Shown piece after piece: positions 3,030-52,097 of a stretch of DNA of 64,000 nt. A program made the position numbers and the translations under genes. Origin of the DNA: a virus (taxonomy: Duplodnaviria; Caudoviricetes); IMG/VR virus record IMGVR_UViG_3300035180_001680. One strand, given 5' to 3'. The notes beneath the pieces are model-generated. The model worked only from the letters and a program-made list of their open reading frames with translations. It was not told where the DNA came from and searched no databases. The stretch's first letter is position 1, and the number at the start of each line of letters is the position of its first letter.

Positions 3030-3305
3030 TCATTCATCTTCATCAACAATTCCAATGTGTTTTCGTCGAATAATTGCTCTTAAAGCGACTCCAAACGTGA
3101 AGCCTTTCATGAATTCTTCTTGTCTGTTTTGATCTTCATCAGGACAAGCTTCTGGGGGATTCGGCTTTTTGTTCGCTTCTCGGAATGCCGAATTGAACCC
3201 ATCTATATAATAATCAGAAGCTTTTGATAACAACTGTTGAAGTTCATCATGAAGTTGAGTTGCAATGAGAAAAATTTCCGTTTGGGAGGCTGTTGAATAT
3301 TTCAT
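3030..3305 (-). CDS. Hypothetical protein
   Basis: ORF tightly packed in operon. Confidence 0.5.
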   Translation of the reverse strand: MKYSTASQTEIFLIATQLHDELQQLLSKASDYYIDGFNSAFREANKKPNPPEACPDEDQNRQEEFMKGFTFGVALRAIIRRKHIGIVDEDE

Positions 3306-46995: not shown

Positions 46996-48498
46996 TTAAA
47001 TTGTAACGAGTTGATAACGTTCACTGTTAATAACATCAAGCATCAAATCATAAGCAGACAAAAATTCTCCACCTATTGTATGCTTAAAGATAGACGGACT
47101 ACATCCACTAACCATTTGAAAACCACGCTCATCCATACTCATTGGAAACTGTTGGTTCTGAGCATCAACATTCCAAAACACCAAATTGGGCATTGTATAT
47201 CCACACTCACCAAATTCTTTAGAAATTGTTTGGAATAATTTTTCGTCAACCATACCCCGACCTTGATGCTCATAAGAATATCTAGCGTTGCTTGTAGCGG
47301 CATCAAATTCCATGTCAGAAATGATATACAACTTCTGTGGTAATTCAGATTGTGCTAACTTGTTTTGTTTGGCAACAGTAAGAATCAAACGGAACACAGC
47401 TTGAATATCTGTATTCATTTCCCATGCAGAACTATTCATATTGGCTATTTTTTCAACAAGGTCAGCTCCCTGAATTTTAAGTAGTTGAGGTGTAGAGCTA
47501 AAAGTAATGAACTTGTTATGATAAGCTTCACAAGTGTTACGTTCAGCCAAATACATTCCAACCGAAATGGCAACTTCCAATGGAAGACCAGCCATAGAAC
47601 CAGACACATCAACTACAGCAAGAGCATTTTCTTGTTTATCTCCAATATAGTTTGGAAGAGCGTCCCACAACGCATCCATGAGTTGGCGTTCGTGTTGTGG
47701 TGTGTTCCTGCCCATCGTAAATGCTTTGCGGACGATTTCATATGGAAAAAGAACACTCGCATTGATTTTCTTTTCGCCAGTCTTTAAAGAATCCAAGAAT
47801 TTCTTACGGCGTTCAGCATCGTGCGCGAAAAAAGCTTTCCCATATAACAAGTTAGCTTGAGAGGGAACGGCACTGTATTCAATACTATCCCACTGATTGG
47901 CAGACACCAACCGTTCAACAATGTTAATTTTCTTACGAAGAGTGCTCAACATCAAGCGATATGCTTTGGATCTTAATTTAAGACCCTTACGAGTTTTTGT
48001 TGCAAGTCGTTTCGTTTCTTTTGAAGAAGCGTTTTCACTTTTCAACCATTTTGCAAGCAACGAGGGATGTTCAGATGCCACGTCTTCGGTAATCTGTGTA
48101 AAGATTAGTGCAATCGCATCTGTTTCAAGTTCTGTATCAAATAACACATACAAATCATCCCAACGTCCAAAGTATGGAATAAGTTTAATGTTTTTACGGA
48201 CAGCGTCAGGGTTAACGTTAATCAACCACTTTAATTGCTTTCTAAACGTATCACGTTCACCTTGACCACCACGAGCGTCCCTGAAATAGAACATAGCACG
48301 AGTGGCTAACAATGCATTTTCTGCATAAGCTTTTGAAAACAAATGAAGAATTTCATCATCATCACGATTGCGGAGTGCACCACCCTGTGCAAACAAATCC
48401 AACATAGCTGATTTGGTTGTATCAAATGCAACAGCACCATTTTCCGTGTGTGCTACATTGGTTGTAATAGAAAGGGCATCCACAAATTCTTTGCTCAC
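46996..48498 (-). CDS. TROVE/Ro60-like plus vWA protein (DUF2828-like)
   Basis: TENGA, RDARGGQGER, GRWDDL, AKWL, VVDVSGSM (MIDAS), SDMEFD. Confidence 0.8.
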   Translation of the reverse strand: MSKEFVDALSITTNVAHTENGAVAFDTTKSAMLDLFAQGGALRNRDDDEILHLFSKAYAENALLATRAMFYFRDARGGQGERDTFRKQLKWLINVNPDAVRKNIKLIPYFGRWDDLYVLFDTELETDAIALIFTQITEDVASEHPSLLAKWLKSENASSKETKRLATKTRKGLKLRSKAYRLMLSTLRKKINIVERLVSANQWDSIEYSAVPSQANLLYGKAFFAHDAERRKKFLDSLKTGEKKINASVLFPYEIVRKAFTMGRNTPQHERQLMDALWDALPNYIGDKQENALAVVDVSGSMAGLPLEVAISVGMYLAERNTCEAYHNKFITFSSTPQLLKIQGADLVEKIANMNSSAWEMNTDIQAVFRLILTVAKQNKLAQSELPQKLYIISDMEFDAATSNARYSYEHQGRGMVDEKLFQTISKEFGECGYTMPNLVFWNVDAQNQQFPMSMDERGFQMVSGCSPSIFKHTIGGEFLSAYDLMLDVINSERYQLVTI

Positions 48499-48584
48499 TT
48501 GTTTCTCCTTTTATCAAGACACATTTTACTGGTTAGATTAAATGTCTAGTGTATTATGCGATTGCTGTTAGTGTCTTTAAACTA

Positions 48585-48809
48585 TTAAAGATTTCTTATA
48601 ACTTGAAATTCATATTGTGGTGGAACTATAACTGCTTTTACGTCTTTAGGCAACGCTTTGTCAAGTGCGTTCGAAATTTCTATTATTTTACTCTTCTTAA
48701 ATAGAGAATCGTCATGAACTTTTATGACTAAAACATCACCTGGATTAAGTTCCAGTTTTGAAATTTCCACCAATACGGTGTTAAAATTAATAACTGGTTG
48801 AGAATCCAT
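48585..48809 (-). CDS. Hypothetical protein
   Basis: LELNPGDVLVIK. Confidence 0.5.
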   Translation of the reverse strand: MDSQPVINFNTVLVEISKLELNPGDVLVIKVHDDSLFKKSKIIEISNALDKALPKDVKAVIVPPQYEFQVIRNL

Positions 48810-49030
48810 TATTCGTCTTTACTAGTATCAGTTCGTTCAACACGCTTCTTTTTGTTTGCTTGGTATGTCAATTCAGCTGAAATCATAGCACGTTTGTATG
48901 CATCACGTGCATGCTTATCTTCAATTGAAGCCATCATACGCTTAATTGATCCCGGTAACTTAAAATGCCGGTTGGGTTTTCCAATAATCACTGCAACCGC
49001 TTGATCTTTCTTTGCTTTTTTGGTAGTCAT
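48809..49030 (-). CDS. Small basic phage protein
   Basis: FKLPGSIKRMMA...RDAYKRAMISAE. Confidence 0.6.
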   Translation of the reverse strand: MTTKKAKKDQAVAVIIGKPNRHFKLPGSIKRMMASIEDKHARDAYKRAMISAELTYQANKKKRVERTDTSKDE

Positions 49031-49449
49031 TTTGGTCCTTTTCGTTAATTTAACAAGACGCCAACCGAAGCTCGGTCAACACCTACCGTATTGAAACACG
49101 GTAGCACGTTTTTGTTGTAGTCTCCATTGGGAAGCTTCACAAGAGCAATCTCCTCCACTTCCCAGATTCTCCACAACTCAAGTCAAAAGATTGCTGTGTG
49201 CGTCTTAAACTTCAATAAAGACATTTTACGGTGATTAAAATCAAAAATCAACGATATTATTCGCAGTTATCGGAAAATTTTTCCCAATGGTCTGGCCCAT
49301 TGACACGATTTATCAAGAGCGTGTACTCTCTTTTTTCAAAGTGACAGTTCACAAGTATGCTTTAAACAATCTGCATTACCAACTCTCTAACCCCTTTTAC
49401 AAGGGAGGTTCTACACAGATTGTTTAAAGCAGACACCTCAATCGAGGCA

Positions 49450-50370
49450 TTTACTTTGTATAAGGTTGAGATTAAACCTATACTATTGATACCTTCGAGA
49501 CATTATCTCATCACCTGCTACAGCTAGAGTTCTTCTCTTATCCACATAATCAGCTTTCGCACAACTATGTCTATCAACATGACTGCATTTTTTAAGTGGT
49601 TGCTTTTCCACCAACATGTAAAGCTACTCGATTATCTGTCTACCGCCAACCTTGCGAGCTGTACAAGAGCGCTAACTCTCTGCGTGCGACTTTCTTTCAA
49701 CATCCTCGACCTTGCGAGTTTTGGACGCCTTCATTACCTTGCGGCTGAAGGATTAAGCCATTTTCACTTTACACTGGAAACGTCTTTGCGTTTTATGTAA
49801 TATAATCCAAATTTATATGGGCTGTTAACCCTAACATTGTTAAACCTACCAAGAAGTGCGTTTCCAGTGGATTTCATACCTTTTGAGTATAAAAATACCA
49901 CACTCCTCATGTTTTTCATCTGCCGACTACTCAACCAGTTTTCAGGAATCGTGACACCCTATTACAGGTACCAAAACCCCCTCAACTTGCACAACAGCCC
50001 TTACTTGCGGGTTCGGACCACTGTACTACCCTTTACCTTTTGAGATGGCTAGTTTGTGTAGGCGTGAGGTCGGCACAACCCGTTACTCTCCAAATGCCCA
50101 AGTTCCCTGCAGAGCAGGCTTGTAAACATTCGTTCTTTCCACACCCCTAACTTCCCTCATATGACTACCGTTGGCGATAATCAGCTCCTTTCGGAGTAGG
50201 TCAGGCTTGCTTGTTTGTACCCCTTACAGGGCGCGGTAGTTGTAGGACCTACCGCTTTCACAACATCGCTGTTGGTTACTTTGCACAAGCGCGTAATTCT
50301 TTATCTTTTAAATTGTTTCTGATGAAACGTTCTGAATTCACAGAACTAATTAAAAGAGTGACTTTCTTAA
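49450..50370 (-). ncRNA. Giant structured ncRNA, GOLLD/ROOL-like
   Basis: About 900 nt without a credible ORF; many GCAA/GAAA-capped hairpins on the minus strand; downstream of a tRNA; TTGACT promoter near 50410. Confidence 0.6.
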
Positions 50371-50657
50371 TACTATCTGTATACTTTATACTAACTTCTT
50401 CATTAAGTCAACAGATATTTAAATTATTTTTGTTGTATTGTTTACTCCTCATGTAACCACCTTGCCTTCTCCTGGTTGATTTCGAAGAACAATCCAAACC
50501 AACCTGGGTGAGCTCCTTGCGAGAGCACAACACAACAAAAACAACTCAAAGTCTATTTTACTACTTTTATTTCGTATCGTCAACAACTAATTTTGTACTA
50601 ACTTCAAAATCACATTCAGTACAAAACACCTTCTTTGACCGCCTAACAATATAATCT

Positions 50658-50733
50658 TGGTAGCGGGGGTCAGACTTGCACTGACCTATTTCGGCTTATG
50701 AGACCGGTGATGAACTACCTCCTCTACCCCGCA
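50658..50733 (-). tRNA. tRNA-fMet(CAU)
   Basis: CTCATAA loop, 1-72 mismatch, CCA. Confidence 0.8.
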
Positions 50734-50906
50734 ATTAATACAAAAGTGTAGACGGTCTGTTTTTCACTAAAGAATGGCGTACCAGTCCTGATCATTGATG
50801 TTATCTCCAATTTACTACACTTTTAATCATCGTTAGAAACGCTCGGTCCTTTATAGAGCTTCGGATCCCTTCCTGTGGAATTGAACCACACCCTTTTCTA
50901 ACTTCT

Positions 50907-50981
50907 CGGTGCCCAATGTCGGAATCGAACCGACGGTCAAGTGTTTTAGAAGCACCTGCTTTACCATTAAGCCAATTGAGC
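50907..50981 (-). tRNA. Amber suppressor candidate tRNA(CUA)
   Basis: GGTGC-TTCTAAA-ACACT in canonical register. Confidence 0.65.
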
Positions 50982-51072
50982 AATCATTTGCTAATATTAC
51001 TTGTTCTTTTAAATAATGTCAACAAATGTTTCTCATTGAATTTATTTACTATAAACAAGGAGTTCGCTGACT

Positions 51073-51330
51073 TTAAATACCAATTCCCGCATGAATAGTG
51101 GGTTCATTTTTGGAAAAATTAAACTCGTTTTTCATGTAATAGTCAGCCAATTTTTCTGTAATCATGCGGATTACATCCGAATAGGAACGTTCCAACACAA
51201 AACGAACATTTGTGTGCCGCCAGGATTTCGTTCGTAAAAATTCATAAACAATTGTCCTATGTTCACGATTAGAAGGGTCGAATATGGTATATTGAGCCGC
51301 AAATTTAAAAATTTCTGTATTCATCATATT
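51073..51330 (-). CDS. Hypothetical phage protein
   Basis: FDPSNREHR...VRFVLE. Confidence 0.55.
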   Translation of the reverse strand, partial: NMMNTEIFKFAAQYTIFDPSNREHRTIVYEFLRTKSWRHTNVRFVLERSYSDVIRMITEKLADYYMKNEFNFSKNEPTIHAGIGI

Positions 51331-51811
51331 AGACCCTATTAAAAGCAATACAACTGTTAGTGTATTGGTGGTCGTTCGTAACTTCTTCACCGACCCAATC
51401 TGGTAAAATTAAACTATCAATTTCTAGCTGAGATTTGTTTTGATTAAACTCGATTTCGGCTACGATAAGCCCCTCGTGTTTTCCCCCAAACACATCAACT
51501 TCCCACAAGTGATAATTATTTTTAACAATGTAACGAACCTTCTCTATGGAATTATGTTCAAAAGCTGAAAATAACTCTTTAGCTAACGTTGGTTCGATAT
51601 CAAATTCGAATTCCTCCCGCCTCAACATATCACCAGTGTCTTTTTTAATAGTCATTCTGTACCAAGACAGGACCTGGGGAACAGATTCAGTCTTTATCCG
51701 AACTCGAGTATTCGGAGCAATGTATGCTTGTTTAATATGAAAAGTTCGAACGATATTGTTCCTCCAATTATCGTTTTTTACTAGAAACTTTCGTTCGATT
51801 TCAAGATTCAT
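51329..51811 (-). CDS. CYTH domain protein (triphosphate tunnel metalloenzyme)
   Basis: EIERKFLV, EKVRY, WEVDVF, VAEIE, PDWVGEEVT. Confidence 0.92.
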   Translation of the reverse strand: MNLEIERKFLVKNDNWRNNIVRTFHIKQAYIAPNTRVRIKTESVPQVLSWYRMTIKKDTGDMLRREEFEFDIEPTLAKELFSAFEHNSIEKVRYIVKNNYHLWEVDVFGGKHEGLIVAEIEFNQNKSQLEIDSLILPDWVGEEVTNDHQYTNSCIAFNRV

Positions 51812-52097
51812 TTTTGTTTCTTTGTTTATAATCAATCGTTAACACTACTTCATCTTTTCCAGTCCAAACTTCACAAAGTCCGTGTTCACCCCATTCACTC
51901 AACACACTCATTTCACCATCACGCCAAAGCTCAGGACTAGCACAAACATAACCTCTTGGAGTAGTAACGCTAGTTTTGTTTGTCCAGGGGTGACCATAAT
52001 CTGTCCATCGCCAGAAACAGTTACAACAACAGCGATCGTGCCACTCTTCTTTCATACATTTGTGATTAATCATCATTAGTTCATCATTCATTAAATG
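51801..52097 (-). CDS. Cys-rich hypothetical protein
   Basis: CCCNC...CASP...HGLCEVW; start uncertain. Confidence 0.45.
   Translation of the reverse strand, partial: HLMNDELMMINHKCMKEEWHDRCCCNCFWRWTDYGHPWTNKTSVTTPRGYVCASPELWRDGEMSVLSEWGEHGLCEVWTGKDEVVLTIDYKQRNKNES

Follow-up and report, generated by a model that had tools for sequence, protein, structure and literature searches.

The locus and its neighbours

The stretch of DNA analysed here (the window) comprises 64,000 nt of IMG/VR virus record IMGVR_UViG_3300035180_001680, and all coordinates below are positions in it unless another locus is named. The whole record has 178,796 bases and is about half complete by estimate; it contains 42 tRNA genes and one copy of GOLLD RNA, which lies on the minus strand of the window. 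The genes for rIIA, rIIB and PRPP synthetase, as well as the 42 tRNA genes, are on the same strand as GOLLD. From its size, the 42 tRNA genes, rIIA/rIIB, PRPP synthetase and other phage genes we conclude that the record is a fragment of an uncultured jumbo phage. The features of the locus are collected in Table 1.

Table 1. Features at the GOLLD locus, in the order in which they follow one another along the minus strand
Feature	Coordinates	Strand	Basis or remark
168-aa ORF, weak CYTH-domain match, just upstream of the tRNA/GOLLD block	51329-51835	minus	22.3 bits (Pfam cut-off 23.2)
Promoter site before the CUA tRNA, TTGACA-17-TAATAT	50994-51022	minus	Sequence
tRNA, anticodon CUA (amber-suppressor type; ARAGORN label Pyl)	50908-50981	minus	63.9 bits, tRNA model
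Atypical tRNA-Met (CAU)	50658-50733	minus	ARAGORN at relaxed threshold only
Promoter-like site, TTGACG-17-TAAAAT	50555-50583	minus	10 of 12 consensus positions
Candidate 118-nt RNA with ~19-bp closing stem (GUUGUUUUUGUUGUGUUGU / ACAAUACAACAAAAAUA)	50428-50545	minus	Fold, z -3.9
Promoter-like site, TTGACT-17-TAAAGT	50383-50411	minus	9 of 12 consensus positions
A/U-rich putative leader with two small hairpins (GUUCUG..CAGAAC, GUUUC..GAAAC)	50298-50376	minus	Fold
GOLLD 5' domain, ~390 nt, variable, XacN1 type	49909-50297	minus	Fold, shared motifs, partly kept stems
Replaceable peripheral module in the 5' domain	50108-50180	minus	71 nt replaced by 79 others in relatives
GOLLD conserved 3' domain, 446 nt	49463-49908	minus	Full-length RF02032 match, 198.8 bits
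Variable single-stranded linker, 73 nt (J13/15 in the published numbering)	49776-49848	minus	Model alignment
Small 3' hairpin, 7 bp, loop GAUU, just past the model end	49433-49450	minus	Fold
Long 3' hairpin, perfect 16-bp arms	49358-49431	minus	Arms 49431-49416 and 49373-49358
Promoter-like site downstream of GOLLD	49223-49251	minus	Sequence
Structured leader before a 73-aa ORF (49030-48809)	49053-49216	minus	Fold, z -2.65
500-aa DUF2828/DUF7788 protein, ~1 kb downstream of GOLLD	46996-48498	minus	PHROG 850 'RNA-binding protein', E 5e-136

The tRNA-linked phage setting that the first-pass annotation had pointed out is confirmed by rIIA/rIIB, by the 42 tRNA genes of the record and by the two tRNAs upstream of GOLLD (50981-50908 and 50733-50658). 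In phage XacN1, too, a tRNA-Sup lies a few kb away from GOLLD. The nearer of the two tRNAs here had been read as tRNA-fMet. That reading is confirmed in part: a CAU tRNA resembling phage tRNA-Met is present, with 76% identity to annotated tRNA-Met genes of Salmonella, Klebsiella and Cronobacter phages (~143 kb), but it is atypical, and ARAGORN with default settings and the Rfam tRNA model both miss it. Pair 1:72 is a U.U mismatch, the anticodon stem has 4 bp, the T-loop is UGCAAGU instead of UUCRANY, and the CCA end is encoded. It may serve as an initiator, an elongator or a mimic. The spacer between the two tRNAs (50780-50905) folds no better than its shuffles (z 0.03).

Between the tRNA-Met and GOLLD lies the candidate 118-nt RNA, preceded by a promoter-like site. 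Two hairpins, one with CUCGCAAGG and one long, lie within its closing stem, and a near-identical strain has two insertions inside the RNA, of 5 nt (after 50498) and 17 nt (after 50452). Nothing in Rfam or in cultured phages matches the candidate, and the contig holds it only once. Downstream of GOLLD, on the same strand, come the structured leader, for which BLAST gave no further copy in the contig, two small ORFs and then the DUF2828/DUF7788 protein. Thirteen neighbouring ORFs, including the one for this protein, were compared by tblastn with all fetched loci and gave no match; since none of the 13 recurs beside GOLLD in other loci, no protein partner is indicated.

Genes for tmRNA lie ~0.15-1.6 kb from GOLLD at three other loci, all of large phages: XacN1 (L002; 3774-4193), L025 (5916-6334) and L080 (5469-5846). 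The one in XacN1 is matched by the permuted as well as by the beta-proteobacterial tmRNA model. The 64-kb window contains no tmRNA.

Identity and domains of the RNA

The tract had been described at first reading as an ORF-free, GC-richer giant structured RNA of about 900 nt, either GOLLD or ROOL, with repeated hairpins on the minus strand. Of the two families GOLLD is borne out. With cmsearch, the Rfam model RF02032 (GOLLD), which spans the 3' domain only and has a gathering score of 150 bits, matched 49463-49908 at 198.8 bits (E = 1.3e-54 for the whole window) and did so untruncated, over model positions 1-416 of 416. ROOL identity was rejected, the ROOL model giving no match at its gathering score or even at E <= 1, and a comparison of 48500-51500 with Rfam at E <= 1 found nothing besides GOLLD and one tRNA. 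The source paper for GOLLD RNA (RF02032), cited by Kretsch et al. 2025 as their reference 3, is reportedly Weinberg et al. 2009. The size estimate also agrees: the conserved core measures ~835 nt, and the RNA would measure ~915 nt if counted from the promoter-like site before it. We conclude that the tract is very probably a GOLLD RNA gene, carried by an uncultured jumbo phage within its tRNA island.

GOLLD in tRNA-rich giant phages is already in print, since the published GOLLD alignment of Kretsch et al. 2025 (PMC12286853) contains the copy of XacN1 (AP018399.1:38572-38983, without annotation in the GenBank record) and lists others from Stenotrophomonas phage CM1, Xanthomonas phage BUDD, Caulobacter phiCbK-like phages and mycobacteriophages. 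The copy described here is a further member.

No ORF longer than 81 aa occurs on either strand between 49450 and 50456, in keeping with an ORF-free tract. The higher G+C is clear for the 5' half (0.47-0.50 at 49850-50299, against 0.31-0.42 in the flanks) but not for the rest of the tract. The repeated hairpins are likewise present, all on the minus strand: CUCGCAAGG twice in the 3' half (~49721 and ~49655), CUCCGAAAGGAG at ~50195, and CUCAAAAGG at ~50044 and ~49886. A third CUCGCAAGG hairpin, at ~50522, belongs however to the separate small RNA with its own promoter-like site and not to GOLLD.

The 3' domain was aligned with 15 others, drawn from IMG/VR, JGI metagenomes and XacN1. In these 16 sequences, 41 of the 51 RNAalifold consensus pairs show double changes that keep the pair, and this copy fits the covarying pairs. 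The family-invariant motifs, UCAAAAG (the first hairpin loop), GGAUAAGAG and UAAUCUCA (the 3' loop), are all found at the aligned positions. The 3' domains fall into two subgroups. The first resembles env-38 and comes for the most part from large marine contigs; the second holds this copy together with XacN1 (L002), L134, L122/L142, L141, L139, L135 and L132. The signature of the second subgroup is GUCGCACG...GCUCGCAAGGNNGGCGGUAGAC, a stem enclosing two hairpins.

In the model alignment, posterior probability is low within the P21 stem. The first hairpin in the presumed P21 stem has here the loop UUAGCG, containing a self-complementary GC; the loop is UCGAA (CG) in XacN1 and UAGCU in L122 and L139. 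We infer that this hairpin corresponds to P21a. A matching GC/CG switch, seen as covariation, is reported for the L21a kissing loop between half-shells (Kretsch et al., PMC12286853).

The linker within the 3' domain, which joins the first hairpin of that domain to the long-range stem, is disordered in published cages and faces the interior. No tRNA was called inside it here (49776-49848). The GOLLD of L122, a 130-kb IMG/VR contig (3172-3629), has a tRNA-like match (34 bits) at 3239-3304, in its linker, and three further members of the subgroup (L141, L135 and L132) carry T-arm motifs of the GGUUCAAAUCC type at the aligned position. Linker tRNAs of this kind are a known GOLLD variant, absent from this copy and from XacN1.

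The 5' domain folds with a minimum free energy of -144 kcal/mol (z -2.8). Searched alone by nhmmer against ~140 fetched loci, it had no match at E <= 10 or E <= 1; its link to XacN1 emerges only from an alignment anchored on the 3' domain, which reaches back to ~50280. This copy, XacN1 and L134 share five short motifs, whose order is unchanged and whose distances from the 3' domain correspond. Those common with XacN1 are ACAGYGAUG, CAARCAAGC, ACUCYG, GUAGNACA and GAGUAG, and the paired offsets of the five from the 3' domain are -364/-336, -309/-278, -289/-265, -121/-108 and -24/-24. A consensus structure made from XacN1 and L134 alone served as the test structure for the stems. In this copy 50 of its 96 evaluable pairs are standard, compared with 32-40 for slid partners and 35.6 +/- 4.5 for shuffles, and 14 of the pairs are changed on both sides. 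Because the motifs are co-linear and the stems are kept above the controls, the 5' domain is, as judged from the alignment, a partly conserved relative of that of XacN1. Such partial conservation agrees with the variable 5' domain described for GOLLD (PMC12286853, PMC12990946).

A 5' domain of the env-38 type, which has a GGCCG start and an AAAUAAAYNNCGAAAG...GGAUAAAGU module, was rejected. A profile of 17 env-38-like 5' domains, which opens with GGCCG...CGAAAG...GGAUAAAGU as does the env-38 construct in the supplement of Kretsch et al., found nothing in 49000-51200, nor in the other members of this copy's subgroup. The cultured jumbo phages CM1 and BUDD have GOLLD 3' domains; their 5' regions differ again, and the upstream sequence lacks the motifs common to this copy and XacN1.

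Natural variation, RNA ends and alternative readings

Four metagenome runs, all of DNA, contain the stretch or its relatives; they come from sediment, microbial mat and, for a small share, hydrothermal vent. Relatives with ~88% identity cover 49639-50108 and 50180-50297, and the likeness ends exactly at 50297, which places the conserved core at ~50297-49463. Beyond that point the relatives read, on the RNA strand, TTGACTTTATATTTGTTTCGTATATAATAG, a near-consensus promoter (TTGACT-16-TATAAT) 2 nt before the shared core. Within the core the 71 nt at 50108-50180 are skipped, and 79 other letters take their place. In the linker, 8 of the substitutions listed for the relatives fall within 49818-49836. 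Of the 13 listed in the 5' domain, when placed on the minimum free energy fold, 6 are unpaired, 6 leave the pair intact by way of G.U intermediates and 1 disrupts a predicted long-range pair, a pattern weakly consistent with the predicted fold. The RNA is kept in the sediment and mat relatives, with the changes clustered in the linker and the replaced 5' module.

Pattern searches for further copies differed in yield. The pattern GAAAGTCGCACG...CTCGCAAGG had no match in IMG/VR; GTGGATAAGAGNNGAA gave 119 loci, ~23 of them with GOLLD. The loci L123-L128, found with the pattern AACGCAAAGNNGTTNCCNGTG, are chance matches without GOLLD, and L122, which came from another pattern, is the only one of L122-L128 to hold it.

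The first-pass annotation had given the RNA its own promoter and, downstream, a long inverted repeat (49358-49430); both can be located. The promoter-like site at 50411-50383, of the sigma-70 kind, would put the start of transcription near 50376. The stretch from there to the core (50298-50376) is taken to lie outside the conserved RNA because the ~88%-identical relatives lose their likeness at 50297; it is a predicted lineage-specific leader behind its own promoter-like site. Past the 3' end of the model, the small hairpin is kept in a divergent relative as CCUCGAAAGAGG, with the loop changed, and is followed there too by the start of the long hairpin. The long hairpin, with its perfect 16-nt arms, folds with z = -5.5, and no shuffle was equally stable. 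Two strain variants in it, at 49373 and 49374, keep the pairing (C>U opposite G and G>A opposite U). A scan for terminator-like sites did not pick it up, and since no U-run follows, it is not a classical intrinsic terminator; it may be a structure that protects or processes the 3' end.

Several other readings of the tract were weighed. The choice of ROOL or another large RNA (a group I or II intron, or a new class), with a superficial likeness to GOLLD, started from an earlier impression that size and context suit either family and from nothing else; with a full-length GOLLD match far above the cut-off, and one tRNA as the only other Rfam family at E <= 1 in 48500-51500, we give it practically no weight. 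Equally negligible is the idea that the tract codes for small proteins. Mechanical ORFs of 31-81 aa can be drawn on both strands, but none is longer, the substitutions in relatives track base pairs and not codons, and the region is accounted for by the RNA model. A decaying, non-functional GOLLD remnant deserves slightly more thought, since the bit score of this copy is the lowest among the GOLLDs compared (the others score 202-308) and the model alignment flags ~20 pairs as non-standard. Against decay, the whole model is matched without truncation and the invariant loops are intact; relatives in several samples keep the RNA, with changes mostly unpaired or pair-preserving; and a promoter-like site and 3' hairpins are both present. 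We therefore regard a remnant as very improbable.

A different question is whether GOLLD is made alone. It could be the distal part of a longer, processed precursor that includes the 118-nt RNA and starts at the 50583-50555 promoter-like site, or farther up with the tRNA genes. This upstream site fits the consensus better (10 of 12 positions; the one before GOLLD, 9 of 12), and from 50583 down to 49463 the scan of the minus strand showed nothing terminator-like; the 118-nt RNA ends in an A-rich strand without a U-run, and all units are on the same strand. On the other hand, the near-consensus promoter standing right before the core in a related phage shows that the core can be its own unit, and this copy too has a promoter-like site on the equivalent side. 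On balance we consider a longer precursor possible but unlikely.

Probable cage assembly and comparison with known systems

Phages and prophages encode GOLLD RNAs close to tRNA islands; the RNAs rise in amount during lysis and form closed cages free of protein (PMC12286853, PMC12990946). This copy too most likely forms cages, given its family membership, its two-domain layout, the L21a-like GC/CG alternation and the published cages, and from these we consider it likely that it oligomerises. Extending published work to this copy, GOLLD would probably be made in infection as a transcript of 0.83-0.92 kb, whose folding probably needs no protein. The 3' domains would probably be joined into rings through loop-loop and A-minor contacts, and by analogy with the cryo-EM structures the 5' domains probably cap the rings to give a closed, RNA-only cage of 10-14 copies with the linker turned inward. 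The copy number here is not predictable, as the cap differs in sequence from that of env-38, the solved cap with which it was compared. The role is most likely tied to the tRNA and translation programme of the phage, for example in holding or shielding tRNAs or ribosome parts, which is conjecture for the family as a whole.

A bolder proposal is that the XacN1-type 5' domain, which among the loci compared turned up only in this copy, XacN1 and the metagenome contig L134, might be a distinct cap module with another geometry and copy number, that 50108-50180 might be a swappable outer decoration, and that GOLLD, the 118-nt RNA and the atypical tRNA-Met might form one non-coding RNA operon; we hold this as a speculation that is more probably wrong than right.

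The established picture of GOLLD is unchanged by this copy, which adds a well-delimited example from an uncultured jumbo phage of sediment and mat; it also shows that GOLLD RNA is recognisable by reading the sequence alone. Its value is comparative. It supplies a second, well-diverged 5' domain of the XacN1 type, and its natural variants mark the parts that are free (the linker and one 5' module) and those that are held.

ROOL, like GOLLD, is a large phage RNA that is found near tRNA islands and forms an RNA-only cage, and it is unrelated in sequence and fold. What this copy has in common with the GOLLD family is the set of 3' stems and the invariant loops, together with a 5' domain that varies, >800 nt in length and a place among phage tRNA genes. 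No family-defining difference was found; this copy scores below the marine members, and its linker has no tRNA.

For two GOLLDs the full-length cage has been solved. That of Streptococcus agalactiae is a 12-mer (PDB 9L0R), and its 3' domain alone gave mostly a 10-mer (9LMF) (PMC12990946); the 3' domain by itself thus forms rings, which the 5' domain caps, setting the copy number (PMC12286853, PMC12990946). The S. agalactiae RNA lacks P21b, whereas in the alignments with the Rfam model and with the other GOLLDs the corresponding stem of this copy seems to hold both hairpins. The other, env-38 (PDB 9MEE), has 833 nt and forms a 14-mer cage (Kretsch et al. 2025, PMC12286853; PMC12990946). Its 3' domain is homologous to that of this copy, its core has nearly the same length (833 vs ~835 nt) and its gene lies downstream of a Met-tRNA, as here. 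Relative to env-38-like 3' domains, one hairpin is extended in this copy's subgroup and another is missing. The 5' domain, or cap, has no detectable sequence likeness to that of env-38, and the cap bridges B2-B5 therefore cannot be assumed here.

XacN1 belongs to the same 3'-domain subgroup (GCUCGCAAGGNNGGCGGUAGAC) and has a partly co-linear 5' domain. Like the present record it is a jumbo phage with a large tRNA set, and its GOLLD linker holds no tRNA. The two copies are nevertheless well separated: identity is ~70% over the best 210 nt only, and about half of the XacN1-type 5' stems fail in this copy. The surroundings differ as well, XacN1 having a tmRNA gene 1 kb upstream of GOLLD where a small unclassified RNA and a tRNA-Met stand here, and so do the sources, XacN1 being a phage of a plant pathogen and this one known from sediment and mat metagenomes. 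Since XacN1 can be grown, the pair offers a tractable system for studying the role of the cage and the control of assembly size by the cap.
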